From positions 1 to 64,000 of the forward strand of contig JBCCXZ010000003.1 of assembly GCA_039190745.1 (NCBI GenBank): a stretch of 64,000 bases of DNA, in the 5' to 3' direction. The notes beneath the pieces were generated by a model. The model did not search any database and was not told the origin of the DNA. It saw only the letters and a program-made list of their open reading frames with translations. A program made the position numbers and the translations under genes. Below are positions 6,601 through 26,023 of this stretch, in pieces. Position 1 is the stretch's first letter, and every line of letters begins with the position of its first letter. The stretch is from Planctomycetota bacterium (GTDB taxonomy: Bacteria; Planctomycetota; Planctomycetia; Pirellulales; Lacipirellulaceae).

Positions 6601-7326
6601 GAACCGTTTATCCTCCGCGCAGCTGGGCTGCAAACCGAACTCGTCGAGTGCGGGCTCCAGCGTCCGGTCCAGGATAAACGACTCGACGAAGTCGGGCGTT
6701 TGCAGCAACGCGTAGCGTTTGCGGGCGGCTTCGGAAAGGTCCTGGTAGAGGTCGCCCAGGAACCGGGTGCCCCACTCGGGGTCGGTGAAGTCGTGCTCCA
6801 GCTCGCCGGTGTTGGCCTCGATCTTGCGGAAGAACCGCAGCAGCACGCCCGCAGCGTCGCCGGAGAGCCAGTTCGGTTCGTCGCGGAGCGGGTTGTGGTC
6901 GCCGAAGAGTTCCCCGGCGCCCGGGAGCTGCGCCAGGCCGTCGAACACGTCGAGCAGGTACTCCCGGTCGGTCTCGGTGGGCCGAGTGCTGAAGAAGGCC
7001 GACTGCTCTTCGCGGGCCCGCTTCAGCCGCTCACCAGAACCGCTGAGCCGCGGCGGTTCGACCAGGTCGTTGTCTTCCAGGAACCGCGCGAACACGCACG
7101 ACAGCACCCAGGCCGCGGCGACCTGTGTGATTTCGCCAGCCCGCCAATCAACCCACGAGAGGGCGGTGCGGTTGGCCTCCTTAGCGCGGTCGTACTCGGC
7201 ACGCAGCCGCTGCCCGATGGTGGCGACCTCGGCCGGTTCGGCGGCCTCACTGCGGTCCAGCAGGTCCTGCTCGAGCGTCTTCAGCACCGCTTGCAGGTCG
7301 GAAAGTAATTGCTGGCGGTCGATCAT
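3634..7326 (-). CDS. pglX: BREX-2 adenine-specific DNA methyltransferase PglX
   Basis: SAM motif DPACGSGHFL, catalytic NPPY, PglX-typical FLGDLYQDLSE, YALLQTPDFVE, HNHFVLDRGGKVF, RGKLDVPKERW. Confidence 0.95.
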   Translation of the reverse strand: MIDRQQLLSDLQAVLKTLEQDLLDRSEAAEPAEVATIGQRLRAEYDRAKEANRTALSWVDWRAGEITQVAAAWVLSCVFARFLEDNDLVEPPRLSGSGERLKRAREEQSAFFSTRPTETDREYLLDVFDGLAQLPGAGELFGDHNPLRDEPNWLSGDAAGVLLRFFRKIEANTGELEHDFTDPEWGTRFLGDLYQDLSEAARKRYALLQTPDFVESFILDRTLEPALDEFGLQPSCAEDKRFKMIDPACGSGHFLLGAFERILDRWNRKEPATEIKDLVQRSLDSVHGVDVNPYAVAIARFRLLLAAMKASGVQRLVDAPNYQTNLACGDSLYHGYSEQKALVADMTDESHYFHVENAAELRRLLADGTYHCVVANPPYIVPKDAAANKLYRERYSACYRQYSLAVPFCQRIFRLAVLGENSMQAAGYTGQITANSFMKREFGKRLIEDFFPRVDLTHVIDTSGAYIPGHGTPTVILFGRRQRPVADTVRAVMGIRGEPSTPDDPGLGLVWTAITHQIDEPGSESDFISVGDTERDRFATHPWSIGGGGAAELKEQLDDAGDQSLGSLAAGIGFAVITGEDNCLLLPPDVPRRHGVTHTLPMVDGDVVRDWVIDDELITIWPNDDVGTRLSEAEIRETLHFLWQYRRSLQNRKAFGVPIEQRGIPWWALREVYTDKLRTPLSIVFAFVATHNHFVLDRGGKVFKQSAPVIKLPEGATEEDHLALLGLLNSSVACFWMKQVFHSKGSQGVNEGLKTEAWEHFREFTGTGLKSFPLPMESSVSRSGLLDRLAQEASEASPGEALCAAAPLHDTMQSARRSNDQLLGEMIAHQEELDWECYSLYGLLDDNLTIDEPPPLELGQRAFEIVMARKMATGELETTWFERHGSTPITVLPGHWPDDYQRLVERRIELIESDKNIGLIERPEYKRRWSTEPWEEQVEKACKNWLLDRLESYFDIDDRMAGEAESSGVGEHCRFHVEVTSVGKLADAARADERFQEVGEVYTGDEAFDVARLVEELVRGESVPLLPVLRYKPPGLRKRAAWEETWALQRREDAGEEVGDIPVPPKYNSSDFVSTGGARYWALRGKLDVPKERWVSFPHCDAADGTPAIAWAGLDHLQLAQAVSSFYVDIKERQGGNEDPRLIPLLGCLLELIPWLKQWHNEVDPEYNLRMGDYYEGFVSDEAMRLPRPTESADGEEGEAQPATIGWTLDEIKSWQPPQRRRGRRRRASS

Positions 7327-10300
7327 GTCGTTGGCTCATTCTCACTGGCCAGGGGAGGGTTCCGTCCGCTGGTGCGGTGGCGGTTGGCCAGCCAGCTCTC
7401 GGGGATGCTTGCTTTCTGACCGTGGCCGGTGAGCGGGACAGGCTTGCCCTCGATCATCGCCTGGCTGTCGCCGGTCAACAGCAGCCACATCGCGGGCGGG
7501 GCGTTGTCCCGACCAACTCGCTGGGCCAGCAGGTCGAGGACATCCATCTGGTCGTAGCGTGCGAGCAGCCCCGGGAAGACCATTAGCATCGGTTTGCGGA
7601 CGGCGAGCAGACGCTCTTGGATCGCGGGCTTCGCGTACTCCACGAGCTGCAGCAGCCTGTCCCAATCGCCTTCGCTGGGCGTCGCATCGGTGCGGAGGAC
7701 CAGGTTCCAGTCGACGCCCTTCTCGTCGGCCGCCGCGCGGAGGGCGTCGAGCACCACGCCTTCGCAGTCGACCAGCTCCAGATCGAACCGGTGCAGCAAC
7801 TCGTCCCGCGCGGCATCGAATCGCTTCGGAGGGACGAGAAGCACCTGGAACGCGTTGTCACGCAACGAGACGTTGAGCCGTTCTTCGAACTGGCGGGCTT
7901 CGGCAACCTCGGGGGTAATCTCGTCAAAGTGGACCGTGCCGGAGGAGGTGGCCCAGCGCTGCAGCGAAGTCGAGAGGCTGCTCACCGAGTGCCGGTCCGT
8001 AACCTGAGGCCGGTAAGCGCCGTGACCACTGGCGGCTCGCGGGTCCCAGTTGAGGGTGAGGCCGGCTTCTTCCAATAGGCTGTCGAGCGCCGGACGCCCG
8101 GGCAGCTCGGCGCACAGCGGGTAGCGTCCACGGACCCGCGCGACGATTTGTTCGACGGGAAGCTCACGCTGAGCGAACAAGGCCCCTTGGGACAGCTTGA
8201 CCGCCCGCCCGGCGTCCATTCCCCGCGGATACAGCTCCTGCCGGCTCGAGACGGCAGCGCGGCTAGACGCGGTGGCCGCCAAGCGGAGCAAGCGGGCGTT
8301 TGCGAATGCGACGCCCTCGGGCGCGGGGACTTCTTGGAGCCTCTCCTGGGCGAGCGAGGAAGAGAGCAGGGGGTCTTCGGCGGCAATCGAGTCGGCCAGC
8401 TTGCCGAGCCGCCAGGCGTAATCGATGAGCCGGCGGTCGGTCGCGATCAGGACGTTCTGCTCCCGACGCCGCGCGATGTAGCGGGGGTTCTCGCGGGAAC
8501 GCTCGACCTCCACGCAGGCCCGCACCGCGGCCTGGGCCAGCTGGCCCCGGAGCGGCTCGTCCTGCATCGAACCCCTGGTGACCAGCAGCGCGTCGGCCAG
8601 TTCACGGGGAGACGCGACGCCCCCCTGTGCCTCCAGCAGCTCGTGCAGCGTCTGGCGGAGGCTGGTCAAGGACGGCTCGTCCGACCACCGCTTCTGCAGC
8701 TCGGTCACGATCTGCCCAACACGACCCCGGGTCACCTCGGCCGCCGGGGTGATGTCCGATTGGCTGGGCCACCCGCCCTGCCAAGGGCCCTCAAGCCCGA
8801 GCAGCAGCCGCGAAACCTGCCGGAAGGTGTCGCCCTTGCGCTGCCCGGCACGCACTACCCGGTCCATGACCAGGTCCACGCTCATCGAGTCGACTTCGGT
8901 GGAGGCCGTTTCACGCTGATCGGTGTCGACCAGCTCTTCGGGCTCGACCTCGGGCGTGCCGAGCCGCTCACGGAGCAGCCGCACCGCGGCGGTGATCTCC
9001 TTGCGTGTCTTGCTGCCCACGCCCCGCAGCGGGACAAGCTGCCGCGCGGGGGTGGTCAGCAGGTCGGCGACGGTGAGGATGTTGGCCCGGTCGAGCGCGT
9101 TGGTCGCCCGCGTGCCGAGGCCCAGCTCGTGGATGGCGGAATCGAATGTCGCGGCCGCCAGCCGTTCCTGCAGCTCTTGGTCCTCGGCCTGGTCGGTCAG
9201 GGGCGTCGCTTCGCCGACGTGCTCGAAGGCGGCCCGCCACGCGCGGAGCATCACCTCGGCGTTGTCGAACCGCTGGGTGATGTCCCGCCGGAACGCCCGC
9301 CCAAAAAACTCCCCCAATGGCCGGCGGAGGGCGCCGTCGAGCAGCTCCAAATCCAGCGTCGCTTCGGTCTCCTCGGGGAGCTGCGACGGCTCGGTGACGC
9401 CGTCGCCCCACTTCGGCAGGGCCCCGGTGGCGAGTTCGTAGAGCGTGGCCGCCGCGGAGTATCGCTCGGCGTGGAGGTCCCACCGGGGCGGCTGGCGGAG
9501 CGGCAACAGGGGGTCGAGGTAGCCGGGAGTGCCGGCGCGGACGTTCTCCGCCGGAGTCCGCGACAACGAAAAATCAAACAACACCGCGTGCAGCGCCCCC
9601 CGGCCGCCAACCCGGCCCACGGCGATGTTGTCGGGCTTGATGTCACGGTGGGGGACGCCGTTCTCTTCCAGGTGCAGCACGACCGACAGCAGGTCCTCGC
9701 CGAACCGCTGCAACAGGTCGATCTGCAGGCTGCCCTCGCTGCGGAGCCGCTGACCGAGCGTCTCGACCCGGAGGTTGTCGCGGTCGGCGACGATCGGCCG
9801 CATCAAGAACCCAAAATGCTGGCCTATCTGGACCACGTCGACCAGGTCGACGATCCCCTGGTGCCGCATCGCATCGCCCTGCAGCACCTCGGCCTCTTCC
9901 GCCAGCCTGTCGCTCTGGTCGGGGTGGTTGGCGACCTTCATCACAAAATCCGCCCCCTGGAACTCCACCAAGAGGGCGATCGAGCAGGCCCCTTTGCCGA
10001 GTCGGCGCTTCACGCGGTAGCCGCCGGCGAGGGTGTCGTCGATCCTGGCGGCTGTTGGGTCGTCGATCGACTCGTCCTCTGGCTCGGTCAGCTCCTCTTC
10101 CACGAGGTCGAGCGCTTCCAGGAATTCCGACGCGGAACCGGTCCGGGTGGCGACCACCGGGTGGGTGGCGGTCTGCACCAAGTCCTGCAGCCAGGGCGAC
10201 GCCCCGTTGAGCACGGAGCTGATCTGCAGGCCGTTGGTCCCGCGGAGCTTCTCGGCCAGCGTGACCGCGCTGCTGGCCGGCGGTTGGCCCGAGAAGATGT

Positions 10301-11588
10301 GGAAGGCCAGGGCGCCCAGCGAGAACACGTCGAGGTGCTCCCCCATGCCCGCCTCGGTGAGCGTCTCGGGGGCCAGGTAGGCGGTCGAGGCCTCTTCGAC
10401 GAACCGCTCGACGTGCGAGGTGGCAGAGACGGCCGGGTGGCCGCCGCTGGTCGAACGCGGGGCGCGGTAGCCCAGCTGCCAGTTGAAGACCTTCACCTCC
10501 GGCTTCGGGCCGTCCGCGTTGGTGAGCAGGATGCTCTGGGGCGACAGGGCGCGGTGGACAACGCGACGGTCGTGGGCGTAGCGGACCACCTCGGCGATCT
10601 GCCGCACCAGGTCCAGCCGGGCGTCCGTCGAGAGGCTGCCGCCTCGCTGGAGGAGGTAGTGGTCGAACCGGATCGACTGGGGGTCGTGCTCCATCAGCAG
10701 GGCAGGGCCCAGCGTGTGTTGGGTCAGCTGGTGGGCCTCCAGGACCCCCGGGTGCCTCAGGCTGCTGATCAGCTGGAACTCGCGCTCCGCGGCGCGGCGG
10801 CGTAGGTCCCGTTCGTCTTGGGCCGCTTCGGTACGGACGAGGTACAGCCGTGCCCGACGTAGCACGTTTTCGACCTGGCTGTGGCAAGCTTCCCAGTCTT
10901 GGTAACCGGGACCCTCTCCTACGAGTTTTCGCAGCCGGTAGTCGCCCACTCGGCGGCTCGCTTCTCTCTGCCGGATGCCCGCCTGGTCGAGGGCCTGGGC
11001 CACCGCGCGGGCAGTGGGTCGATCGTGCGGCTGCCGCGGCGGTCGCGGGTCGAGCCCGGGGCAATCGCGGTCTTTGACGGCGGCCATGATCCCGGGCCGG
11101 GCCGGGCGTTCGTCGGTCGCCTCCCGGTCCCGAAGGCAGACTTTGGTCCGGGCCGCCCCCTGCAGGTCGCACTGCAGGCCCTCCGCCGAGCAGAAGACCA
11201 GCGGTTGGACGTAGGGCATCCGCGCCCGGCCGCGGCGGAAGGCGTTCTGTTTTTCGAGCAGTGACCGGAGCTTCTTGGACTTCAGGTCGGTCGCAAAGAG
11301 CGGGTTGTCGACCGTCTTCGTACGGCCGTCGTGGACCCAGTTCCAGCTGCCCGCGTCCCCGGTTAGCCGTCCTGGGTTGCTCTTAATCTCGATCAGGAAG
11401 AACCCCATCGGGGAGAAGAGGAGCAGGTCCACTTCGTTGATGCTGCCATCGTCGGCGATGAACTCGAAGTTCGACCAGGCCCGCCATGTCTCTGAGGCGG
11501 GCATGCGCTCGCGGATGTAGTCGAGCGCCTCGCGTTCCCAGGGGAACGGAGACTCTGATACCGTCGTCCAGTGAGGAGTGGGGGGCAC
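7323..11588 (-). CDS. pglW: BREX-2 Ser/Thr kinase PglW (NERD nuclease-like domain, two kinase domains, RNAP alpha-CTD-like domain)
   Basis: NERD-like EVDLLL...LIEIKS; kinase HRDIKPDNI; alpha-CTD-like IHELGLGTRATNALDRANILTVADLL...GVGSKT; stop overlaps pglX start (ATGA). GTG start at 11588 is inferred; ORF track extends to 11621. Confidence 0.93.
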   Translation of the reverse strand: MPPTPHWTTVSESPFPWEREALDYIRERMPASETWRAWSNFEFIADDGSINEVDLLLFSPMGFFLIEIKSNPGRLTGDAGSWNWVHDGRTKTVDNPLFATDLKSKKLRSLLEKQNAFRRGRARMPYVQPLVFCSAEGLQCDLQGAARTKVCLRDREATDERPARPGIMAAVKDRDCPGLDPRPPRQPHDRPTARAVAQALDQAGIRQREASRRVGDYRLRKLVGEGPGYQDWEACHSQVENVLRRARLYLVRTEAAQDERDLRRRAAEREFQLISSLRHPGVLEAHQLTQHTLGPALLMEHDPQSIRFDHYLLQRGGSLSTDARLDLVRQIAEVVRYAHDRRVVHRALSPQSILLTNADGPKPEVKVFNWQLGYRAPRSTSGGHPAVSATSHVERFVEEASTAYLAPETLTEAGMGEHLDVFSLGALAFHIFSGQPPASSAVTLAEKLRGTNGLQISSVLNGASPWLQDLVQTATHPVVATRTGSASEFLEALDLVEEELTEPEDESIDDPTAARIDDTLAGGYRVKRRLGKGACSIALLVEFQGADFVMKVANHPDQSDRLAEEAEVLQGDAMRHQGIVDLVDVVQIGQHFGFLMRPIVADRDNLRVETLGQRLRSEGSLQIDLLQRFGEDLLSVVLHLEENGVPHRDIKPDNIAVGRVGGRGALHAVLFDFSLSRTPAENVRAGTPGYLDPLLPLRQPPRWDLHAERYSAAATLYELATGALPKWGDGVTEPSQLPEETEATLDLELLDGALRRPLGEFFGRAFRRDITQRFDNAEVMLRAWRAAFEHVGEATPLTDQAEDQELQERLAAATFDSAIHELGLGTRATNALDRANILTVADLLTTPARQLVPLRGVGSKTRKEITAAVRLLRERLGTPEVEPEELVDTDQRETASTEVDSMSVDLVMDRVVRAGQRKGDTFRQVSRLLLGLEGPWQGGWPSQSDITPAAEVTRGRVGQIVTELQKRWSDEPSLTSLRQTLHELLEAQGGVASPRELADALLVTRGSMQDEPLRGQLAQAAVRACVEVERSRENPRYIARRREQNVLIATDRRLIDYAWRLGKLADSIAAEDPLLSSSLAQERLQEVPAPEGVAFANARLLRLAATASSRAAVSSRQELYPRGMDAGRAVKLSQGALFAQRELPVEQIVARVRGRYPLCAELPGRPALDSLLEEAGLTLNWDPRAASGHGAYRPQVTDRHSVSSLSTSLQRWATSSGTVHFDEITPEVAEARQFEERLNVSLRDNAFQVLLVPPKRFDAARDELLHRFDLELVDCEGVVLDALRAAADEKGVDWNLVLRTDATPSEGDWDRLLQLVEYAKPAIQERLLAVRKPMLMVFPGLLARYDQMDVLDLLAQRVGRDNAPPAMWLLLTGDSQAMIEGKPVPLTGHGQKASIPESWLANRHRTSGRNPPLASENEPTT

Positions 11589-11950
11589 GAGGGCAGATCG
11601 TTCGAGCGGGCGGCGGCCCACGCACCGGCGTGGACCGCCCGTATAAGACGGGGCCTAACCACCGCAGCCTACCAATATTGACCGCTCGCCGGAATCAGCG
11701 CCGGGGGCTATGGAGTGCTTCTGGCGAGGTGGCTTGGGCCGGGCAGAGGCGAGTCTAGGGGTTGCACAAGGGCGTCGAGGGCGGGGCAGTGGGGCTTCAC
11801 CACGGAACGGTGCACTCTCCGTTCTAGCCAGCACGCCCAGCAAGACCCCGCGGTCGCTGATTGGAGCCCAGATGGGGATTTTAGGGCCACATAATTCCAG
11901 CGCCCTCGCCGCGAGCCGGCTGGCTCTCTCTGGTATGCAGAGTCTGGAAT

Positions 11951-15187: not shown

Positions 15188-16363
15188 TTAACCAGTCTTC
15201 GCGGCTATCTCCCGGGCCAGCGCCTCGTCCCGCATCGCGTAGTGCTCCGTGACGTTCGCGTGTGAGTGGCCCAGCAGCACCTGGCTCGCTTCGAGTCCGT
15301 GCTTGGCTCGCACCTCGGTCGCGAAGGTGTGCCGCAGCAGCCCCGGCGACCAGGGTTCTACGCCCGCCGCCTCGGCGGCCCTCTGGACGGCTCTCCGGTA
15401 GCTGTCGACGCTGTACCGGGCCCCTGGCGGACGCTTGGCTGAGCGATGCCGCTTGGCGGCGGGGCGGTTCCCTTGCGACAGGGGCGTCGTACGGGCGGCG
15501 TGTCGCGCTTCGTAGTGCTCCGCGACCGCCTCTCGCGGTGAGAAGCAGTACTGATCGGCCCCACGCAGCAGGAAGGGACGCAGGACCTCCTGGCCGCGGG
15601 GGCCGATGTAGACCTTCCGGTTCTTGCCGAGGTAGTCCGTCTTGTGGGACGCCGGCGTATAGCGCCACACTTGGTCGCTCCGGTCGATGTCTCCCGGTCG
15701 GAGGATGACCAGCTCACCGGGCCGCATCCCGGTCTGCCGCTGCAGCTCGACCATCGCCCGGACGGTGGGCGTCAGGTGGGGCAGGGTCTTGGCGAGCTGT
15801 TCGTCCGTCACGGGCCGCCTGGGAGCGGCCTCACGGGCCTGGCTGCGTCCCTTGCGGAGCCCCTCGACGGTGGCGAGGGACTGCACCACCTCGACGGGCA
15901 CCAGCCCCTCGCTCACGCCCCAGCGGAACATCCGCTTGATGCGGTTGACGTGGTCGTTGATGTACCGCCGGCTCAGGCCGTCTTCAAGCATCTTCTGCCG
16001 CAGGGCTTTCAATGCCACCGGGGTGAACTCCGCTACCGAATCCTCTCCATACCACGCCTTGAGGTAGCGTATGACGCACTTGACGGCGGGGGCCACGCCA
16101 GTGCAACGGCCGTCCTTCTGGTAGTACTGCAACGCGTGCTTATAGTACCGGGCGCAGAGTTCGACGACCGACAGCGAGTCGTGGCCGGCGGGATCGCAGC
16201 GGCCGCCGGCGAGCCACTCGGCGACCAGGCGGTCGTAGGAGAGTTTGCTGGCCTTGGTGCCGTGGGGACCGAGGTAATGGTCGACGCCGGAGAGGGTGAC
16301 CACGGCCTGACCGCTGGCTTTGTGCTTGCGGTACTTGGGGATCGAATGGGCGAGACGCGGCAT
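15188..16363 (-). CDS. Tyrosine recombinase/integrase
   Basis: TGMRPGEL (catalytic R), LLRHTFATE, LLGHS...TEHY; N-terminal arm-binding-like YRKHKASGQAVVTLSGVDHYLG. Confidence 0.95.
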   Translation of the reverse strand: MPRLAHSIPKYRKHKASGQAVVTLSGVDHYLGPHGTKASKLSYDRLVAEWLAGGRCDPAGHDSLSVVELCARYYKHALQYYQKDGRCTGVAPAVKCVIRYLKAWYGEDSVAEFTPVALKALRQKMLEDGLSRRYINDHVNRIKRMFRWGVSEGLVPVEVVQSLATVEGLRKGRSQAREAAPRRPVTDEQLAKTLPHLTPTVRAMVELQRQTGMRPGELVILRPGDIDRSDQVWRYTPASHKTDYLGKNRKVYIGPRGQEVLRPFLLRGADQYCFSPREAVAEHYEARHAARTTPLSQGNRPAAKRHRSAKRPPGARYSVDSYRRAVQRAAEAAGVEPWSPGLLRHTFATEVRAKHGLEASQVLLGHSHANVTEHYAMRDEALAREIAAKTG

Positions 16364-16393
16364 GCGCAGGGCTCCCGTAGTGAGGCACAGCCA

Positions 16394-16415
16394 CAAAACG
16401 GTATGTACCGTTTTG
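16394..16415. promoter_or_regulatory. Near-perfect palindrome between the tRNA 3' end and the integrase start
   Basis: caaaacggta-tg-taccgttttg, 10-bp arms. Confidence 0.5.
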
Positions 16416-16490
16416 CGCCGTCGGGAATTGCCGCGCTGCCGACCGCCGGCAGGTAACTTAAAGACTAGTTTCGGCGGGGTTTAGGTTCAG

Positions 16491-16564
16491 TGGGCGACAC
16501 TGGATTCGAACCAGTGACCTCTGCGGTGTGAACACAGCGCTCTAACCAACTGAGCTAGCCGCCC
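16491..16564 (-). tRNA. tRNA-Val (anticodon CAC)
   Basis: Reverse complement gggcggctagctcagttggttagagcgctgtgttCACaccgcagaggtcactggttcgaatccagtgtcgccca folds as a cloverleaf; CCA tail not encoded. Confidence 0.97.
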
Positions 16565-16618: not shown

Positions 16619-16981
16619 CTACGCTGTCGGGGTCGTCGGCTTGTCGTCCGCCGCTGAGTCAGCAGCTTCCCCCTCGGAGGCCGACCCCTCCAGCCCGTCG
16701 TTTGAGCCATCGTCGTCTGAGTCATCCTCGTCCGAGCCGGCGTCGGCGTACTGCTGTTCGTCGTAGTACGGCAACCGTTCGGTATCGGTGTCGACGTACA
16801 GCGACTGATTAAACTCGTCCTGGATGCCGCTGAGCCCGCGGCGGAACTCGGCGAGCGTCTGCCCCCAACTCCGGGCCACCTCCGGCAGCTTGCCGCCGTA
16901 CAGCAGCAGTGCCACGCCCAGGATGAGCAGCATCTCCCCCGGGCCGGGGCTCCAGAAGGCCAGGATTGAGTGCATGTTCAT
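16619..16981 (-). CDS. TatA/TatB-family translocase subunit with acidic tail
   Basis: GPGEMLLILGVALLLYGGKLPEVARSWGQTLAEFRR. Confidence 0.85.
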   Translation of the reverse strand: MNMHSILAFWSPGPGEMLLILGVALLLYGGKLPEVARSWGQTLAEFRRGLSGIQDEFNQSLYVDTDTERLPYYDEQQYADAGSDEDDSDDDGSNDGLEGSASEGEAADSAADDKPTTPTA

Positions 16982-17023
16982 CTGCCAGCCCAACGGAAGT
17001 TGAGGCGTGCCTTTGCTTCGGCG

Positions 17024-17257
17024 TTACTTCTGGGCGAACTCTTTCTCGTGTTCGCCGCTGGAGGCTGCGTGCACCTTCTCTTCGATTTTCTCCTCGGAGG
17101 TGTCTCCGTCCCGGATGCCCTTCTTGAACTCAGTGATGCCAATACCTAGAGACCGCATCACCGAGGGCAACCGGTTGCCGAACAACAGAAGCAACACGAA
17201 AGCCACGATCAGCATCTCGGGCACACCGGGGAACCCGATCGCGAACAGGATGTCCAT
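17024..17257 (-). CDS. tatA: Twin-arginine translocase subunit TatA
   Basis: EMLIVAFVLLLLFGNRLPSVMRSLGIGITEFKKG. Confidence 0.92.
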   Translation of the reverse strand: MDILFAIGFPGVPEMLIVAFVLLLLFGNRLPSVMRSLGIGITEFKKGIRDGDTSEEKIEEKVHAASSGEHEKEFAQK

Positions 17258-17401: not shown

Positions 17402-19204
17402 CTAGCGTGAGATCGCCTCCCACCCCCGCCGCTCGGCTACGCCGGGGCTGTCGTCCGGAGAGTACCGGTAATACACCTCCAGGCACAGCGCCGCCATCGC
17501 GGTGGTGTACACCCGCCCGCCGTAGCCGCCCCAGGCCGTGTCCGTCCCCCAGCCGCCGTCGGCTTGCTGCGTCGTAGTGAGGGCCGCGGTGAGCGCCCGG
17601 TTCCAACGCCGCCACGCCAGCTCCGCGTCGACCGAAGCATCGCTTGCCGATTCCAACGCCAGCGTCGCGTAGTACCAGTAGTAGAAGTTCGCCCGCCCCG
17701 AGCCCGGCGGCTGCACCAGCAGCGAGTCGACCGCTTCCTTCGTCACCGCCGGCGCCACGGCCGATGCGTTGCCCGCCAGCAGCTGCCGGCAATACAGCGC
17801 CTCGGCGGTCATGGTCCGGCTCGCCCGGGTCACCGGTTGGTAGGCCGCCAACCCGCCCGCAGACCCCCTGCGAACACTCCGCAGGAAACGCTCTACGCGG
17901 GTCCACGTGACCGACGGCACATCGACGCCGGCAAGCTGCGCGGTCTTCAAACCCATTAGTTGCCAGCCGAGCTGACTCGTGTCGCCGGCGTGCCCGCGGA
18001 GGTACCGCCAGCCGCCGTCCGAGGGGTGCTGCAGACTCAGCGAGTAACGCACCGCCCGCTCACACATCGGCCGCAGCTGGTCGTCCCCGGTGACAGCCAT
18101 CGCCTCTAGCGCCGCGAGCGACGCCATCGAATGGCAGTAGGTCTGCGCGAACACCTGGGCGTCGCCGTAGAGCGAGCCGTCGGCCCGCTGGCGGCCGCGG
18201 AGGTACGCCAAGCCGCGGTCGATGTTCTCCGCGTACGGCCCCGACTCGTGCGTGCTGCCTCCGCCGAGGAAGGCCAGTAGCGCCAGGCCGGTCACGCCCG
18301 TGTCTGCGTTCGCCCCGGCGCCGTTGCGGTTGTGACCGAGAACAACGCGCTCCACGCCGGCCCCGTGGCGTGCGGCGACCCAGCCCCCGGAATCGGCCTG
18401 CGTGGAGGCCAGCCAGGAAAGCGCCTTCCGCACGGCCCGCTCGGTTTGAGGGCTGCCGCCGCGCCTGGCGGCGCGCTGCAACCGATCGGCCGCGAACCGA
18501 TCGGCGTACTGCGACGGAACCACGGGGTCGGGCCGCGGCCGCAGCGGGTTCACCGGCTCTTGGCCGTCGTTGACGTCCTTGTTTGTGGAAGCTGTCCCCG
18601 ACTGCTCGGGCGGAGATTCTGGCTCTGCCTCGTCCGCGTCAGCGGGCAGCTCGACGGCGTCGTCTGCTGTCTGCTGTTCCTCTGTCTGCTCCACAGCCTC
18701 GGGCTCACTCTCCGGTTCTTCCGCCGGCATCTCCTCTGCCGGCGCCTCTTCTTCCGGCTCCGCCTCCTGGATCTCCTCCAGGACCTCTTCGAGTTCCTCC
18801 GCTGTCACGGGCTCCGGCGGCGTCGGCTCGGGCATCACCACCGGTTCCTCGACGGGCTGCTCCCAATCGGCCAGCGGCGGCGCCTCGTCAGCCTCCTCTT
18901 CCTCTTCAACGAGCGCCTCGTCGGGCAGCATCGCGATGCGGATGGGTGCGTCCGAGCCGTCGCCGCCTGCTCCGGAGACGATCCGGATGGTCGTCGCCAC
19001 GCAGGCCAGCAGCAGGTGCACCCACAGCGACAACGCCGCGCAGCGGTGCCACGCCTTGGCCCCGCGCCAACGCGTGCGGAACAGCAGCACGAGCCCGACG
19101 GCGCTCGCCGCCAACGCAACCCACAGCCCGACCGCGGCGCTGGGCAGCGCCCGCGACCAAACCGAACAGAGCAGCGCCAACGGGGCAGGGCAGGGCGGTT
19201 GCAT
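17402..19204 (-). CDS. Membrane-anchored prenyltransferase/squalene-oxidase-repeat (terpene cyclase fold) protein with TonB/TolA-like N-terminus
   Basis: QW-like repeats (QADSGGW, QRADGSL, QHPSDGGW, QQADGGW), C-terminal TAMAALCLEVYYRY; two N-terminal TM helices, the second with SLWVH; long Glu/Pro-rich linker. Confidence 0.85.
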   Translation of the reverse strand: MQPPCPAPLALLCSVWSRALPSAAVGLWVALAASAVGLVLLFRTRWRGAKAWHRCAALSLWVHLLLACVATTIRIVSGAGGDGSDAPIRIAMLPDEALVEEEEEADEAPPLADWEQPVEEPVVMPEPTPPEPVTAEELEEVLEEIQEAEPEEEAPAEEMPAEEPESEPEAVEQTEEQQTADDAVELPADADEAEPESPPEQSGTASTNKDVNDGQEPVNPLRPRPDPVVPSQYADRFAADRLQRAARRGGSPQTERAVRKALSWLASTQADSGGWVAARHGAGVERVVLGHNRNGAGANADTGVTGLALLAFLGGGSTHESGPYAENIDRGLAYLRGRQRADGSLYGDAQVFAQTYCHSMASLAALEAMAVTGDDQLRPMCERAVRYSLSLQHPSDGGWRYLRGHAGDTSQLGWQLMGLKTAQLAGVDVPSVTWTRVERFLRSVRRGSAGGLAAYQPVTRASRTMTAEALYCRQLLAGNASAVAPAVTKEAVDSLLVQPPGSGRANFYYWYYATLALESASDASVDAELAWRRWNRALTAALTTTQQADGGWGTDTAWGGYGGRVYTTAMAALCLEVYYRYSPDDSPGVAERRGWEAISR

Positions 19205-19220
19205 CCGATCGACCCCCCGC

Positions 19221-19652
19221 TTACCTAGGAGCCGCACGGCCGCCGTCGGCCACGCGCACCGTGATGCCGAGCTCCGCGACCCGCGCGTCTTTGCACGCGG
19301 ACAACGCCGAGGCGATCTCCTGGAACCGGCTCTCCGCCGCCCCGCGGATGACGACGCTCGTCCCCGGGAACGCCGCCACGGCCGAGGCGAGCCGGCCGCG
19401 GAGCGTCTCCAGCGAAACCGTCTCGCCGTCCAAGGCCAGCGTGCCGTCCCCGCGGACGCTCACCACCCGCTGCTTCGGCGCCGGCGTCGACGGCGACGCG
19501 GCCGCCACCTCCGGCAGGTCGAGCGGGATCTCGTGCTCCAGGTCCACGAACTTGGTCGCGACCATAAAGAAAATGATGAGCAGGAACACCACGTCGATCA
19601 TCGGCGTGAGGTTCAGCACCGGTTGATCGTCTTGTTGAGTCTTTAGCGGCAC
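19221..19652 (-). CDS. exbD: ExbD/TolR family protein
   Basis: LNLTPMIDVVFLLIIFFMVAT; GAGGGAGG RBS before GTG 19652. Confidence 0.93.
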   Translation of the reverse strand: MPLKTQQDDQPVLNLTPMIDVVFLLIIFFMVATKFVDLEHEIPLDLPEVAAASPSTPAPKQRVVSVRGDGTLALDGETVSLETLRGRLASAVAAFPGTSVVIRGAAESRFQEIASALSACKDARVAELGITVRVADGGRAAPR

Positions 19653-19674
19653 GGCGCCTCCCTCGCTCGGCGGG

Positions 19675-20475
19675 TCAAGCGGCCTTCTTGCCGGCGGCCT
19701 TGATGCCCGTTTGACTCGCACGCGAGCGGCGGTGTTCCAGCGCCTCGCACGAGATGAGGTTCACCAAATCTTGGCCTAGCCGATCGATCTCCATCACCAG
19801 CGAGTCGACCCGACCCACGAACCAGAGGTAGAGGATCAACGCCGGGATCGCCACGAACAGCCCCGCGGCGGTCGACAGCAACGCCCCGCTGATGCCTTGG
19901 GCCAAAAGCTCTGGCCGGCCCATCGCGGCCTGCCCGGCGATCGCGTTGAACGCCTCCATCATCCCCCACACCGTGCCCAACAGCCCCATCAACGGGCTCA
20001 CGGTCGCGACGCCGTTGATCACCCGCAGGAACCGACGCAGCTGGTTGGCGGCCCGCTCGCCCTCGTCGAGCACAGCCTGCTCGACCTCCACGGCGGGCTT
20101 GCCCCATTTGCGGACCGCGGCGGCGAATACCTCGGACACGTGGCTGCCGTTCTGCCCGCAGAGCGCGAGCGCCTGGTCGCGGTCGACGGCGCCCTCGCTG
20201 ATCTGCAGCAGGAACCTCTCGGCGAACAGCCGCGGCGCCACCCGAGCCCGACGCAGGCTCACCGTCCGCTCGAAGCTCACCAGCAGCAGCACGAACGAAC
20301 AGAGCACGATCGGCAGGAGCAGCGGCCCGCCGGCCCACAGCATGTCCCACACGCTCGTGGTGGGGATCGCCTCTTCAACGAACACGTCGGCGGCTTCTTG
20401 CGCACGCGACGCCGCCGGCGCCAACGCCCAGAGCGCTGCGGTTGCGTAGCCCGTGATTCGATGCCGACCGATCAT
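19675..20475 (-). CDS. exbB: MotA/TolQ/ExbB proton channel protein
   Basis: ATVSPLMGLLGTVWGM...GISGALLSTAAGLFVAIPA. Confidence 0.93.
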   Translation of the reverse strand: MIGRHRITGYATAALWALAPAASRAQEAADVFVEEAIPTTSVWDMLWAGGPLLLPIVLCSFVLLLVSFERTVSLRRARVAPRLFAERFLLQISEGAVDRDQALALCGQNGSHVSEVFAAAVRKWGKPAVEVEQAVLDEGERAANQLRRFLRVINGVATVSPLMGLLGTVWGMMEAFNAIAGQAAMGRPELLAQGISGALLSTAAGLFVAIPALILYLWFVGRVDSLVMEIDRLGQDLVNLISCEALEHRRSRASQTGIKAAGKKAA

Positions 20476-20531
20476 CCCTGACCGCCTGTTTCTGTCCGCT
20501 TCCTTGCGGGGCCGTTCGAACGATTGCCTTT

Positions 20532-21851
20532 TTACTTCCGTCGGGCGACCCGGTCTCGCGTGTGCGATACCCGTCCGCGCAACTGCTCCTCGACCGGCGA
20601 ACCCGGCCAACGCTCGATGGCTTCGTCGTACACAACCGAGGCCCGTGCCCAGTCGCCCGCCATCTCGTGTGTCTTACCGATCTCCAGCGCCGCCCGCGCT
20701 TGCCACTCGGGTTGGTCGTGCTCGTCGATCACCCGCCGCAGCTCCAGCCGAGCGCGCTCAAAATCTCTCTGGTGAAAAAACGTCTCGCCGATCATCCACT
20801 GCGCCATCGCCGCGATCGGTTGCCCCTCGGCTTGTGGTTCGCTCAGCACTCGGCGGTAGGCGTCCCGCGCCGCGGGAAACTCTCCCCGCCCCGCCCGAGC
20901 CCGCCCACGCAGGTAGCGCAGTTCCGGCGACAGCTCGAAGCCGTCCGCTTCCACCGCCTCGACGTACTCCAGCGCCCGCGTCCACTGCTGCCGGCGTGCC
21001 GCGAGTTGACCCAGCCTCAGCAGTACCACGCTGCGCACCCGGTCGGCGACCGACGACAGCTCGGCCTCGATACGCCGGAACCGCTCCGCCGCCTCGTCAA
21101 AGTCTCCTGTTCGGTAAGCCGCTTCCGCCCCCCAGTAGGCGAGCTCCGCGGCGGTCTCGTTGTCGATGCCCGTTCGGTGCCCGGCGAGCGTCGCGCCGAT
21201 CTCCCGCCAACGCCCCATGCCCGCGAGCGTCCGGCACATCAGCGCCAGGGTGTTCGCGTAGAGCGCTTCGTCTGCGCTGTCGACCGCTATTTCGTCTAAG
21301 CCGTCTTCGTCTTCGCCGGCACGAGCTTGGCCGAGCGTGGTCAGCAACGCATCGGCGTGCGCCACACATTCCTCCGCCCGGTTATCTTCGGCACAAACGA
21401 GTGCTAGCCAGTAGGCCGCCCGGAGGGCCTGCGGCGAGCCCGCGTGCTCAGACCTGACCCGACCGAAAGAGTCTTCCGCGCCCGCAAGGTCGCCCAACTC
21501 GTAGCGGATGCGGGCCGACGACTCAAGCGCAGCGGCCGCGTAGGGGTTGGGCCGCGGCGCCGCGGCGATCTGGTCGAACAAGACGGCCGCTTCGGCACGG
21601 CGAGAAAGCCTGAGCTGCAGCAGAGCCGCCCGCCACTGGGCCGTCGCCCGCTCGTTGAAATTGGTCGCTTCCTCGGCCGCCTGGCGGTAAGCGTCGATCG
21701 CCGCCTCGAGCCGCTCCTGCTGCTCCAGCCGCAGGCCCTCGACCAGCGCCGCCTCGGAGTCGGCCCGGGCGGGTAGGGCGACGAAGCCCGCGGCAACCAA
21801 GAGCAGCCCGGCGATCGCTCGTGCAGGTTGCTTCATGCCGACCAGCCTCAT
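20532..21851 (-). CDS. Exported TPR protein (CpoB/YbgF-like repeats)
   Basis: Signal peptide ending PARA-D; multiple TPR helices such as AQWMIGETFFHQRDFERA. Confidence 0.85.
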   Translation of the reverse strand: MRLVGMKQPARAIAGLLLVAAGFVALPARADSEAALVEGLRLEQQERLEAAIDAYRQAAEEATNFNERATAQWRAALLQLRLSRRAEAAVLFDQIAAAPRPNPYAAAALESSARIRYELGDLAGAEDSFGRVRSEHAGSPQALRAAYWLALVCAEDNRAEECVAHADALLTTLGQARAGEDEDGLDEIAVDSADEALYANTLALMCRTLAGMGRWREIGATLAGHRTGIDNETAAELAYWGAEAAYRTGDFDEAAERFRRIEAELSSVADRVRSVVLLRLGQLAARRQQWTRALEYVEAVEADGFELSPELRYLRGRARAGRGEFPAARDAYRRVLSEPQAEGQPIAAMAQWMIGETFFHQRDFERARLELRRVIDEHDQPEWQARAALEIGKTHEMAGDWARASVVYDEAIERWPGSPVEEQLRGRVSHTRDRVARRK

Positions 21852-22073: not shown

Positions 22074-22685
22074 CTACCGTGCCGAGGGGCCGTAAGACTC
22101 GCTGGGACCCGTGTCGACGTTCCCCACCATGTGCAGGTGGTTGTGGTCGATGTAGATCACCTCCCGGGCGTCCTCGTCCACAATCGTGTGCGGCACCGGC
22201 CAGCCGACGCGGCGGACGTCTTCGTAGAAGATCGTGCACTTGTAGTGGGCGTGGTGCTGCTGGGCCGGCCCGATCAGCGGGTACTGCCGCGGCGGGTCGA
22301 CGTAGTCGGCGATCTTCTCCTTCACGATCCGCACGTCGTTGCGGTTGTGCTCGTAGAGGAACGGCACGCCGCCCTGTACTTTGTCCGCACGCTCCAGGGC
22401 GCGCATCACCTCGTCGTCGGTCGGCGGGTCGAGCGCCGCGATCTCGCCGCCCGATTGGATCGGACCCAAGATCGGCACCCGGGCGTAACGCTCCTGCACC
22501 CAGGCCTCGTCTTCCTTCTTCTTCTGGAAGTACGGGCTCACCGGCACCGGCACCGCGAACGGCCCCAGACTCGGCCCCAGGTTCTGCAGACCCCAGAAGC
22601 AACCCGTTGAGGAGAGCGACCCCGCCGTAAGCAGGGTGACCACAGCCAAACGCAGGTTGCGAGTGATGCAGAGTTTCGGATCCAT
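22074..22685 (-). CDS. Hypothetical lipoprotein
   Basis: Lipobox-like LSSTGC after a hydrophobic stretch; coding-like composition. Confidence 0.75.
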   Translation of the reverse strand: MDPKLCITRNLRLAVVTLLTAGSLSSTGCFWGLQNLGPSLGPFAVPVPVSPYFQKKKEDEAWVQERYARVPILGPIQSGGEIAALDPPTDDEVMRALERADKVQGGVPFLYEHNRNDVRIVKEKIADYVDPPRQYPLIGPAQQHHAHYKCTIFYEDVRRVGWPVPHTIVDEDAREVIYIDHNHLHMVGNVDTGPSESYGPSAR

Positions 22686-22870
22686 CGGAATGCCTTGCTC
22701 GGTGTCTTCTGTCGGGGAGCGGCTCACACGCCTGCGGACCGGAACTCCTCCGATCCACGGAAGTAGTTATCGTGTGAACGTGGGCAAGACTTGCAGGTTT
22801 TTCGGATTATTCCGGGAATGCCGGTTCTGGCGCCGCTGGCGTTGCTAGCGGCTATTGTTAGCACTTCTTC

Positions 22871-22945
22871 TGTAGGAGGCCTCTCCGAGGCCGATGTCGG
22901 TTTCTTAGCCGGAGAGCGTTATCGGCCTCTGACAGGCCTCCTATA
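22871..22945. repeat. REP doublet (REPIN-like), copy 2
   Basis: tgtaggaggcctctccgaggccgat ... atcggcctctgacaggcctcctata; GTAG motif followed by an internal palindrome. Confidence 0.8.
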
Positions 22946-22979
22946 GATCCTTCCAAACACGCCAGCGCCTCAGCCATCG

Positions 22980-23011
22980 AAAAAGCCCCGCCGGCAACTT
23001 GCCGGCGGGGC
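22980..23011 (-). terminator. Rho-independent terminator of the BON gene
   Basis: gccccgccggcaa/ttgccggcggggc stem with a U-run on the minus strand. Confidence 0.85.
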
Positions 23012-23046
23012 CGTGGACGCTTCACTCACACTCCGCTAGCACCGGC

Positions 23047-23796
23047 TTAATAGTGCTTGTTGTCCTTGAAGTCCAAGAACCACCAGCCGTCGTCCCACTC
23101 CAACTGCACCTTCCGCCAGCCCAGCGGGACCTGCGGGTAGGGGTAGAACGGGCCGATGTAAGGCCACGCCGAGGGCGAGTACTGCTTCGGGTACGTCAAC
23201 GCCGCGTAGTTCGGCGAAGCCGCGTAGCTTGGCCAGGCGTAGCCCGGGAGCTGGGGGTTGTCGTAGCTGACCGACTGACCCACCGCCGGCGGGATTTGAG
23301 CTGTCGGCGCCGGGCCCATGCCCGGACCCATTCCAGCGCCGGCGTACCCGCCGCCGCCGGCGAATGTCGCCGCTTGGATCGGGGCGCCCGCCGGGGCGTA
23401 AGGCAGCGGCATGTTGCCGCGGGCCGTCCGGCGAGCCGTCATCGGCTGCACCTCGGGCATCCGGTCCAGCGACTGCTCGGTGCTCGCGAGCTTCGGCTCG
23501 GGCAGCTGCCTGGCAGGCTCCTCGATCGTGATCCGGCTCACCACCGCCTCGACACCCTCGGTGCCGCGGGCGAGCTGCTCGGCGATCTTCTTCTGCTGCG
23601 GGCTCGTCACCGTGCCCATCAGCCAGGCGACGCCGTCCTCGTACTTCACGCCGACCTTGTAGCCCTTCAGGCGCCCGCTCTCTTTCATGTTGCGGGCGAT
23701 CAGGTTCGCGGTCTTGTCCTTGGCGCTTGCGGCCTGGGGCGCAACCGCGCCGCAGAACAACGCCAGGGCCATCAGACCCACTGTGAGTTTTCGCAT
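23047..23796 (-). CDS. BON domain protein with Pro/Tyr-rich C-terminus
   Basis: Signal peptide; VKYEDGVAWLMGTV...AEQLARGTEGVEAVVSRI is BON-like; strong RBS. Confidence 0.85.
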   Translation of the reverse strand: MRKLTVGLMALALFCGAVAPQAASAKDKTANLIARNMKESGRLKGYKVGVKYEDGVAWLMGTVTSPQQKKIAEQLARGTEGVEAVVSRITIEEPARQLPEPKLASTEQSLDRMPEVQPMTARRTARGNMPLPYAPAGAPIQAATFAGGGGYAGAGMGPGMGPAPTAQIPPAVGQSVSYDNPQLPGYAWPSYAASPNYAALTYPKQYSPSAWPYIGPFYPYPQVPLGWRKVQLEWDDGWWFLDFKDNKHY

Positions 23797-24085
23797 CTCC
23801 CCCTCCTGGTGAGTGAGCGCCGTCGCGACCCACCGCCGATCGGCAGCGGTCGCGGCAGAAAAGTGTGCGTCCACGCCCGGCAGTGCGTCTCTGGCGACAC
23901 GCCGCCCGGGCATCCGACCGCCCGGCGCCCCCCGCGGGGCACACTCCGAGACCGGTCTGGTTACGCTTTTCGGCACGCGGTCATGCCGGAGAGGAGTTTT
24001 TTTCCGATTTTGCCGGCCGCTCCGCTCTTAACGCCTCTGCCGATCTTCCGGCCGAGCCGCTACGAGAGACGCCGGCAAGCCGCTG

Positions 24086-26023
24086 CTAGCGTTTGTTCCG
24101 CCGGCTCGTGTTCGCCTGCCGAGAAGTCAGCAGCTTCTGCACCGCCTCCTCCAGCTCGGTCGCCTGCAGGTCGTTGCTCACGAGCCGTCCCTGCTGGTCG
24201 ACCAGCAGCAGCAGCGGCAGAGAGGGCACCCCCATCTCGGTCGCCAGCCGGCTCTCGAAGCCGCCCGCCTCGCGCAGCTGTCTCCACGGCAGACGGTTCT
24301 TCTTCAGGTACGCCTGGGCAGCGGACGCGTCGTAGTCGAGGTTCACGCCCAAGATCTCCAGCCCCTGCTTGCGGTACTTTGTGTACAGCTCTTTCAGGAT
24401 CGCGTGGTCGGTTTTCGACACGTCCGGCGAGGTGGCCCAGTACTGCACCACCACGACCTTGCCGCGGTAATTGGCGAGCCCCGCCTTGCCGCCGCCGAGC
24501 ACCGCCCCGGCGATCTGTACCGGCTTGCCCACGCCCGTCAGCCGCTTCAGCGCCCCCCGGGCCCGCGGGGCGTGCAAGTTCTGCGGCGCCTGCGTCACGA
24601 TACGCTGGTACCACTTCGCCGCCGCTTTCGCATCGGAGATCTCGCTGCCCAACGCCAGCTGGTAGTAGGCCTCGGCGCTCTGCTCGCTCTGGGGGTACTT
24701 CTTGACGAAGGCTTCGAGGCTTGCCAGCCAAGCGTCGTTCGTCTTCGAGTGGTCGACCCCCGGCTTGCCCAGTGCGGCCATGTACTCCGCCAGCATCCGC
24801 TGGAACTGGAAGTACGGCACGAGGTCTTTTGTGCCGGCCCGCTCTGCCAGCTTCTTCTCCCAGCTGGCCAGGTACTTAACGCCGCCGTCGAACTGGCCCA
24901 TCTGCGTCGCCGAACCCACTGTGTCAGCAATCTGCTTCAGCCACAGTTGCTGCTCTTCTGCGCTGGTCGCGGCAGCCGCCAGACGCCCCAACAACTCCGC
25001 CCGCTGCCGGTTCAGTTTCGGCAGGTCGTCGGCTTTCCCCTGGATCATCTTCTGGTCGATCGCGTCCAGCTGCGTCAGCATCTCCTGCATCTTGTTGTCG
25101 CCGCCGGCTCCAGCCATAGCCGTCGGCAGCGGCGTCACGCTGCCGTTGGGGCTGTAGAACAACCCGGCCGTAGCCGTAGCGTCTGTCGAAACAGTCGGCG
25201 AGTCGATCAGCTTCCACGCATCGCCCACCCGCACCATCGTGCCCAGGTTCAGCTGGTTGTGCTCCTCGCCGTCCTGCACCATCGCCCAGGCGTTCTCGTA
25301 CACCAACAGGTCTTTGGCGGTCTTGCCTTCTGCAGGAATCAACCCCGGCCGCAGCCCGCCGAAGTCGGAGAACTCCGTCTGCTTGCTCAGCCCGGCCTGC
25401 TTGGCGTTGGCTGCGAAGTCCTTGCTCGCGGCGGCAATCCGCTCCGAGACCCGCTCCGCCTGCGCCGCTCCCAAGCCGAGCGTCTTCAGCTCCCCGGCAG
25501 TCAGCAGCAAGCTAGCAAACCGGCGCGAGTCGCCCTCAGCCAAGGCGTACACCGCCTCTGCCGCGGCCTCCTCGGCCGAGATCCGCTTCCACTGATCGAT
25601 GCGGCCGTCTTGGTTGCGGTCGATCCCCCAACGCGTGCCCGCCTGGTGGAACCACCGCGACTGGTCCGCCTTGTTGTCGAAGTCGCTGTCGATATCGCGG
25701 TACACCTCGACGCCGTTGCTGTAGTAGCTCCAGCGGTCCACGACCTTGTCGCTGTTCGTGTCGGCAAACTGCCGCAGCACCACGCCGGCCCCCGAGCGGA
25801 CCACCCACGCCGTCGAGTCGCCCACCTTCTCGGCCTTCACCGTGCAAGCGGCCGCCTCCGCCGGCTCGGGCCGGTCGTACTCCACGCCCGCCTGAATCGG
25901 CTCATACTCCAGCGTGTCGGCAACCTTCGGCGCGGCCCCCGCTCCGGCGGGCAGCACAACAAGGCAAGCCAGCACAGCCAGCAACGGGCGGCGAACAACG
26001 GTGCAAACAGCGAGCGGCGTCAT
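24086..26023 (-). CDS. Exported protein with TPR and C-terminal TlpA/redoxin-like domain (no CxxC)
   Basis: LANYRGKVVVVQYWATSPDVS...GLEILGVNLD...GVPSLPLLLLVDQQG. Confidence 0.85.
   Translation of the reverse strand: MTPLAVCTVVRRPLLAVLACLVVLPAGAGAAPKVADTLEYEPIQAGVEYDRPEPAEAAACTVKAEKVGDSTAWVVRSGAGVVLRQFADTNSDKVVDRWSYYSNGVEVYRDIDSDFDNKADQSRWFHQAGTRWGIDRNQDGRIDQWKRISAEEAAAEAVYALAEGDSRRFASLLLTAGELKTLGLGAAQAERVSERIAAASKDFAANAKQAGLSKQTEFSDFGGLRPGLIPAEGKTAKDLLVYENAWAMVQDGEEHNQLNLGTMVRVGDAWKLIDSPTVSTDATATAGLFYSPNGSVTPLPTAMAGAGGDNKMQEMLTQLDAIDQKMIQGKADDLPKLNRQRAELLGRLAAAATSAEEQQLWLKQIADTVGSATQMGQFDGGVKYLASWEKKLAERAGTKDLVPYFQFQRMLAEYMAALGKPGVDHSKTNDAWLASLEAFVKKYPQSEQSAEAYYQLALGSEISDAKAAAKWYQRIVTQAPQNLHAPRARGALKRLTGVGKPVQIAGAVLGGGKAGLANYRGKVVVVQYWATSPDVSKTDHAILKELYTKYRKQGLEILGVNLDYDASAAQAYLKKNRLPWRQLREAGGFESRLATEMGVPSLPLLLLVDQQGRLVSNDLQATELEEAVQKLLTSRQANTSRRNKR

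Follow-up and report, generated by a model that had tools for sequence, protein, structure and literature searches.

The window analysed here is a stretch of 64,000 nucleotides from a Planctomycetota bacterium of the family Lacipirellulaceae (assembly GCA_039190745.1, contig JBCCXZ010000003.1), and it forms the start of contig C3 of a 3.9-Mb genome that is 95.5% complete (G000). Between positions 17402 and 21851 it carries four open reading frames on the minus strand. In the order of transcription, these encode a tetratricopeptide repeat (TPR) protein, an ExbB-type and an ExbD-type motor subunit, and a protein of 600 residues that we call P0001. The intergenic gaps are 56 bp (TPR/exbB), 22 bp (exbB/exbD) and 16 bp (exbD/P0001), in keeping with the tight operon that the original prediction had described. 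This cluster is real, conserved and apparently unpublished; the closest titled relative of the window is another Lacipirellulaceae assembly (L001, 86% identity). Its features are as follows.

20532 to 21851, minus strand: exported TPR protein of 439 residues with a likely signal peptide (Pfam TPR)
19675 to 20475, minus strand: motor subunit of the exbB/tolQ type (PF01618, E 5e-29)
19221 to 19652, minus strand: motor subunit of the exbD/tolR type (PF02472, E 4e-25)
17402 to 19204, minus strand: P0001, the probable toroid-headed transducer, 600 residues (PF13243, E 1e-10)
19043 to 19141, minus strand: first transmembrane (TM) helix of P0001 (residues 22-43) and basic loop (44-54), hydropathy up to 2.08
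18977 to 19042, minus strand: second TM helix of P0001 with S59-x3-H63 (19030-19016), the TonB/TolA motor-docking motif
18923 to 18946, minus strand: D-box-like strand P87-IRIAML-P94 of P0001, a predicted ExbD-binding site
18521 to 18922, minus strand: acidic, Pro-rich linker of P0001, poorly conserved in sequence
17450 to 18520, minus strand: (alpha/alpha)6 toroid head of P0001, residues 229-585 (AlphaFold2 (AF2) model, QW-type repeats, no DxDD)

P0001 begins with two hydrophobic helices (residues 22-43 and 55-76) that flank the basic loop, and the sequence SLWVH (S59-H63, from 19030) lies within the second. The original prediction had correctly placed this motif in a TM helix and recognized the Glu/Pro-rich linker behind it; it had missed the first helix and the basic loop, and the D-box-like strand was absent from it. 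The pattern of two TM helices and a basic loop is shared across an alignment of 28 transducer sequences (A3), with W46 present in at least 90% of them. By the positive-inside rule, applied to hydropathy and charge, the loop would be cytoplasmic and the barrel periplasmic. In the same alignment H63 is kept in 28 of 28 sequences and S59 in 27 of 28, and among 120 close homologues both residues of SxxxH are kept in 119. Of 120 long homologues, which are kin and hence not independent, 118 have the motif-bearing TM helix ahead of the barrel, whereas such a helix is found in 30 of the 1506 G000 proteins that have a hydrophobic segment. We suggest that the combination of an SxxxH helix with a barrel is more than chance.

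The strand P87-IRIAML-P94 begins 25 residues past H63, which is the TonB spacing, and it has flanking prolines. In a D-box, hydrophobic and polar residues alternate between two prolines (available text of PMC10907165), and the D-box of E. coli TonB (45-51) binds the ExbD dimer (available text of 10.1101/2024.10.08.617233). By pattern and spacing, such a strand is found at His+25 in 104 of 119 close homologues, and in a wider set 22 of 51 homologues show the pattern, compared with 16 of 466 linker windows used as controls. The linker that follows (residues 96-225, about 18530-18920) holds 39 Glu, 8 Asp and 22 Pro in 130 residues. Its length ranges from 108 to 199 residues in 110 close homologues, and its mean identity is 0.20, compared with 0.63 for the barrel.

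In the accessible part of 10.1101/2024.10.08.617233, Ser16 and His20 of E. coli TonB contact Ser34 and Trp38 of ExbB, with Pro190 behind. With the residue register checked against E. coli ExbB, S60, T168, T202 and P211 of ExbB are each kept in 24 of 24 sequences, and the TM aspartate D20 of ExbD in 27 of 27. Thus, as judged from sequence, the proton-path Asp and Thr residues of ExbB and ExbD are intact in the cluster. On the docking face of ExbB, the Ser and the Pro are kept in 24 of 24 sequences and the Trp in none of 24.

The arrangement is also retained across planctomycete genomes. Among 39 related loci, exbB and exbD lie directly upstream in 26, an exbB-like gene alone in two, a contig end cuts the locus in eight, and three have no motor gene. 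Conservation of SxxxH beside exbBD had been proposed as a check, and all 26 motor-linked loci have the His and 25 of them the Ser; in three of these loci (L008, L028 and L031) SxxxH is encoded in a different reading frame, upstream of a frameshift. The L028 cluster sits at the very tip of a contig of 3 Mb that is titled Acidobacteriaceae, yet it nests among planctomycete sequences; this may be a chimeric contig end. Of 61 genomes in the class, 41 carry the N-terminal module as a single copy, and in family f77 the count given as not found is 0 of 13 hits. In a separate set of 20 loci, picked by this module alone (20 of 40 non-self matches), SxxxH and the barrel are present in all 20. The gene order there is exbB-exbD-transducer in 12, exbD-transducer in two and TPR-degenerate exbB-transducer in four; of the remaining two, one has a degenerate exbB 6 kb away and one is without either motor gene. 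Four genomes (G003, G042, G090 and G108) have a split operon, in which exbD stays with the transducer and the exbB orthologue is found elsewhere, with a large TPR gene alongside in three of the four. These exbB orthologues match at E 1e-81 to 1e-89, compared with 1e-38 at best for other exbBs. In a quick tree of 68 barrels, the motor-linked forms make up one clade of 37 rows (SH-aLRT 98). The conservation of the locus, the split operons and the clade thus define a core of TPR protein, ExbB, ExbD and transducer.

Taken with the anchor and the motor residues, we hold with good confidence that P0001 is a motor-coupled transducer of the adjoining ExbB and ExbD. The idea that a cyclase-type toroid occupies the slot of TonB or TolA agrees with the conserved SxxxH, the intact motor residues, the kept synteny and a topology that points to a periplasmic barrel.

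The genome offers a setting for such a transducer. TonB_C (PF03544) was not found in G000, and neither was a TonB-dependent receptor; the genome has two OmpA-domain genes and four exbB loci. In a sample of 121 genomes of the phylum, TonB-dependent receptors occur in 89 but in none of the six that belong to the class of G000. A scan of G000 for an SxxxH TM helix followed by an acidic or Pro-rich linker returned six matches, one of them a likely false positive. Of the five credible proteins, three have a toroid at the C-terminus and the other two a vWA domain, and this exchange of heads on one type of anchor and linker favors a transducer. A second motor locus of the genome (L062; C21, 46709-53397) encodes a signal-peptide protein that combines a toroid with HEAT, a TM protein that belongs to no family, one ExbB and two ExbD subunits, and a beta-propeller protein.

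The C-terminal 357 residues of P0001 are modelled as a 12-helix toroid with a predicted local distance difference test score (pLDDT) of 94.4 and a predicted template modelling score (pTM) of 0.94. The best structural match is the monodomain squalene cyclase 8paj (Z 25.6, root-mean-square deviation (rmsd) 3.0, 288 residues aligned), followed by the squalene-hopene cyclase (SHC) 1gsz (Z 25.3, rmsd 3.4, 294 aligned). Matches to terpene cyclases lie at Z 22-26 with 15-18% identity. Sugar-acting toroids come next, namely glycosidases, epimerases and also a transaldolase (Z 18-23), and Foldseek puts the two groups at like rank. In a profile search of PDB sequences, SHC is the top match (E 9e-16). 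The model and these matches bear out the original description of a QW-repeat alpha-barrel without DxDD, since a DxDD-like motif was not found in P0001.

The database names would make P0001 a plain terpene cyclase or prenyltransferase of the monodomain kind, tethered to the membrane. PF13243 does score above its cut-off, homologues carry public names such as "squalene--hopene cyclase", and monodomain cyclases such as MstE exist (available text of PMC12324236); D408 is, in addition, a lone conserved Asp. Against this, DxDD occurs anywhere in only one of 120 close barrels and nine of 162 diverse barrels, and in no conserved column. P0001 scores 38.4 bits with TIGR01507 (cut-off 431.1) and 48 with TIGR01787 (cut-off 323). 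It is one toroid, not a two-domain beta-gamma build, and a long linker would hold it in the periplasm. Published planctomycete SHC-like proteins, as described in the available parts of PMC7306690 and PMC12324236, differ from P0001 in keeping the catalytic residues and a detectable gamma domain. We therefore regard a plain cyclase as very improbable.

The head could also work on lipids without cyclizing them. A motor-driven lipid mover would bind isoprenoids or other lipids in the toroid and extract them or shuttle them between membranes, as the original prediction had proposed. Terpene cyclases are the top fold and profile matches, and the conserved face has many Tyr and Trp residues. However, neither a two-domain cyclase nor any other SHC was found in G000, and Pirellulales are without SHC in the available text of preprint 10.1101/2025.07.29.667474 as well. 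Counting as a barrel any homologue at E <= 1e-15, barrels occur in 110 of the 121 genomes and SHC in 39 (35 with both, 75 with a barrel only, four with SHC only and seven with neither). Because SHC was not found in G000 or in most genomes with a barrel, a hopanoid-handling role is weakened. In addition, the core cluster has no gene for lipid synthesis or lipid transport. The lipid part of the original proposal thus finds little backing, and we consider a lipid mover distinctly unlikely.

The pocket of the toroid is nevertheless strongly conserved. In the 162 diverse barrels Y356 is kept in 161, D408 in 161, S410 in 160 and W414 in 162; E576 is kept in 160, R580 in 159 and R564 in 151, and Y508, Y511 and T568 each in at least 159. 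By the AF2 helix boundaries, most of the near-invariant residues sit at the beginning of every second helix or close to it. Alternate helices of an alpha/alpha toroid face its central pocket. D408 is the near-invariant lone Asp. Profile alignments of the toroid to cyclases were short and inconsistent, and no inner helix is assigned as the counterpart of the DxDD helix. The lack of DxDD together with the conserved pocket residues means that the head is not a standard squalene cyclase, yet the pocket is under selection. It could bind a peptide or catalyze another reaction. The barrel had been called non-catalytic; this is right as far as a DxDD cyclase is concerned and unproven beyond that, with D408, S410 and Y356 nearly invariant.

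Relatives of P0001 show what else such heads are combined with. Among the matches listed, a TolB-like PD40 propeller is found in 88 of 120 longer homologues, and 14 of 120 long homologues contain a pair of toroids. Transducers of 1270 and 1948 residues with a PD40 propeller occur at L044 (5012-8821, plus strand) and L051 (5228-11071, minus strand), the latter with two toroids. At L035 (8533-11877, plus strand) there is a tandem pair of toroids without SxxxH, where the N-terminus of the first has a weak match to an OAA lectin. In G000 itself (L067; C30, 29095-43150) a secreted toroid homologue lies beside genes for a MoxR AAA protein, a vWA protein and a propeller. The secreted homologue with its MoxR and vWA neighbors and the PD40 propellers point to protein-protein work in the periplasm.

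The conserved pocket can also be read in favor of an enzyme. In this case the motor would position or switch a toroid that does not cyclize squalene but acts on, for example, a glycan, wall or protein substrate. The near-invariant Y356, D408, S410, W414, R564, E576 and R580 at or near helix starts would suit such a role, as would the glycosidases, epimerases and transaldolase of the same fold that follow close behind the cyclases, and the secreted homologue beside MoxR and vWA genes. However, P0001 fits no known catalytic motif, repeat proteins conserve their structural residues as well (though the set of 162 barrels is free of the motif bias of the related loci), and interchange with vWA heads suits a binding role. 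An enzyme head is thus unlikely in our view, though it is the alternative to be taken most seriously. Overall, we lean somewhat toward the full statement that P0001 is a TonB/TolA-like motor-coupled transducer whose toroid head binds protein and is not a cyclase.

Several observations weigh against this statement. In family f76, five of six loci have an exbB without the Ser of TM1 and the Thr and Pro of TM3, and none of the six has exbD, though SxxxH is kept. The motif can therefore outlast an intact cognate motor. This lineage may rely on a different motor, or else the helix also serves in a way that needs no proton flow. Loci with SxxxH and a decayed motor (exbB without the key Ser, Thr or Pro, and no adjacent exbD) are L086-L089, L092, L029 and L039. 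Many SxxxH paralogues lie far from any motor gene. In ExbB, the position of Trp38 is L64 here, and all 24 sequences have an aliphatic or small residue there. The Leu-x3-Ser half of the SHLS motif is not kept in P0001 (A70 and R74), with A70 in 24 of 28 sequences of A3 and residue 74 variable; this half is less conserved in Ton systems too (available text of 10.1101/2024.10.08.617233). By the pattern used, the D-box-like strand is missing in 29 of 51 wider homologues. The TPR gene is absent from nine of the 26 motor-linked loci (present in 14, unclear in three), and no gene for a target accompanies the cluster in the loci compared. The predicted topology of P0001 draws on hydropathy and charge only, and the near-invariant D408, S410 and Y356 could be catalytic.

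Some of these points would suit a scaffold that is anchored but not driven, has ExbB or nothing as its binding partner, and owes its linkage to motor genes to history. The f76 loci, the many orphan paralogues and the missing ExbB Trp are what it would lead one to expect. However, the proton-path Asp and Thr are invariant outside f76, exbD stays with the transducer when the operon splits, and the D-box-like strand lies at the TonB spacing. We find an undriven scaffold improbable, and we favor the motor-coupled transducer.

How might the transducer work? The second TM helix would dock on the outside of the ExbB pentamer through S59 and H63, and the ExbD dimer would capture the strand 88-93. Proton flow would then turn the motor and reel in the linker. 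Across the periplasm, the toroid may use its conserved aromatic face to grip and pull a protein target associated with the outer membrane or the wall, with possible help from the large TPR protein. The likely job would be envelope upkeep or uptake in cells without TonB-dependent receptors.

The TPR protein had been taken for CpoB, the TPR partner of Tol-Pal. CpoB (YbgF) has roughly 260 residues with an N-terminal trimer domain. The TPR protein of the cluster scores 85.7 with the CpoB model TIGR02795 (cut-off 90.1), its best stretch covers only the C-terminal residues 345-423, and in Pfam it matches generic TPR families only. In 12 of the 14 loci with a TPR match in the 20-locus set, the relatives have 990-1152 residues. 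We suggest that the 439-residue protein is a shortened form of the TPR protein of about 1000 residues that precedes exbB in most relatives. The score below cut-off, the long relatives and the loci without the gene rule out CpoB, and this part of the original prediction does not hold.

Compared with known systems, P0001 shares with TonB-ExbB-ExbD the Ser-x3-His TM helix, a D-box-like strand at His+25 between prolines, a Pro-rich linker, and the Asp, Thr, Ser and Pro residues of the motor. It differs in having no TonB_C and two TM helices, in the replaced Trp38 of ExbB, and in a genome where no TonB-dependent receptor was found. The motor type, the docking motif, a periplasmic TPR gene and the TolB-like PD40 of longer relatives recall Tol-Pal (TolQRA, TolB, Pal and CpoB); on the other hand, the cluster has no tolB or pal, P0001 has no TolA C-domain, and the TPR protein fails the CpoB model. 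With type II terpene cyclases (SHC, OSC, MstE and 8paj) it has in common the alpha/alpha toroid with QW-type repeats, whereas it is single-domain, without DxDD and on a predicted periplasmic tether. The best reading of these sequences is that P0001 works like TonB or TolA while being a member of neither family, nor a squalene cyclase.

The nearest published relatives are the motor-driven force transducers with vWA heads (Williams-Jones et al. 2025, PMC12204202), for which the available text gives no function. As described there, they share with P0001 an SHLS-type TM helix, a predicted motor box, a Pro-rich or disordered linker and a head other than that of TonB. In bacteria of the Planctomycetes-Verrucomicrobia-Chlamydiae (PVC) group, TPR, tolQ-like and tolR-like genes lie upstream of them, and TPR and exbB genes are also upstream of P0001. 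They have two heterologous tolR-like genes according to the same text, whereas a single exbD follows exbB here; the head of P0001 is an (alpha/alpha)6 toroid without a VWA match, and it has an extra N-terminal TM helix. In the portions of that paper available, the main text does not contain "prenyltransferase", "squalene" or "toroid", and the supplement does not contain "squalene", "prenyltransferase" or "terpene". A 2026 review (PMC12905483) does not mention vWA transducers in its available text. In line with the original prediction, no description of a toroid-headed transducer was found in the literature searched, which largely leaves out subscription journals. The available main text of a transposon-directed insertion sequencing (TraDIS) paper on P. 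limnophila (PMC10632474) does not mention ExbB, TonB, Tol or squalene; the essential-gene figure, in the same available text, lists Plim_3131 (COG0811), Plim_3133 (COG0848) and Plim_0306 (COG1657), tags that could not be mapped to this cluster. The class of P0001 is best read as a sister to the vWA-headed transducers with a new type of head.

Other genes adjoin the cluster in the window.

16619 to 17257, minus strand: two tatA-family genes (PF02416), syntenic neighbors that are probably not core
22074 to 26023, minus strand: a lipoprotein, a BON protein and a thioredoxin-fold protein upstream of the TPR gene, conserved neighbors in Pirellulales-type loci that are probably not core

The lipoprotein, BON and tatA genes adjoin the cluster in Pirellulales-type loci only. 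The tatA pair has a promoter-like site of its own (17366-17338, 10 of 12 matches), and tatA genes were not seen beside the barrel in L040-L043; the pair is thus probably not part of the core. The lipoprotein (22074-22685, minus strand) is highly conserved, His-rich and without a family; its nearest clusters are mostly from Planctomycetota, and its gene often follows that of a BON protein. Its model is beta-rich (pLDDT 65), with no PDB match at E <= 0.001 and only weak LptE-like matches at E 0.08 or worse. In G003, G042, G090 and G108 it lies away from the motor genes, next to BON in two of these. We rejected it as a core outer-membrane partner because it is apart from the motor genes in all four genomes checked. 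The exported protein of 645 residues at 24086-26023 (minus strand) ends in a TlpA-like thioredoxin fold with no CxxC at the usual place. PADLOC gave no match for P0001, the TPR protein or the lipoprotein. Elsewhere in the window, a PglW-type NERD/kinase protein (7323-11621, minus strand; PADLOC PglW, 1452 bits) belongs to an island bounded by an integrase (15188-16396) that adjoins tRNA-Val (16490-16564).

These findings would extend the envelope force transducers of the TonB/TolA class by one more kind of head. Many planctomycete proteins that currently bear the name "squalene-hopene cyclase" or "prenyltransferase" would be reassigned, which bears on hopanoid synthesis inferred from such annotations. 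More speculatively, and we think this rather unlikely as a whole, Planctomycetia may have replaced TonB and Tol-Pal by a set of arms that sit on several ExbBD motors and can exchange toroid for vWA heads, and one family would have made the toroid into a motor-less form. The toroid, derived from the terpene-cyclase fold, would then be a receptor or enzyme gated by force, and it would power uptake without receptors or the remodelling of the outer membrane across the enlarged periplasm of these cells. H63, residues 87-94, ExbD D20 and the pocket residues D408, S410 and Y356 provide handles on how planctomycetes without receptors energize their outer envelope.

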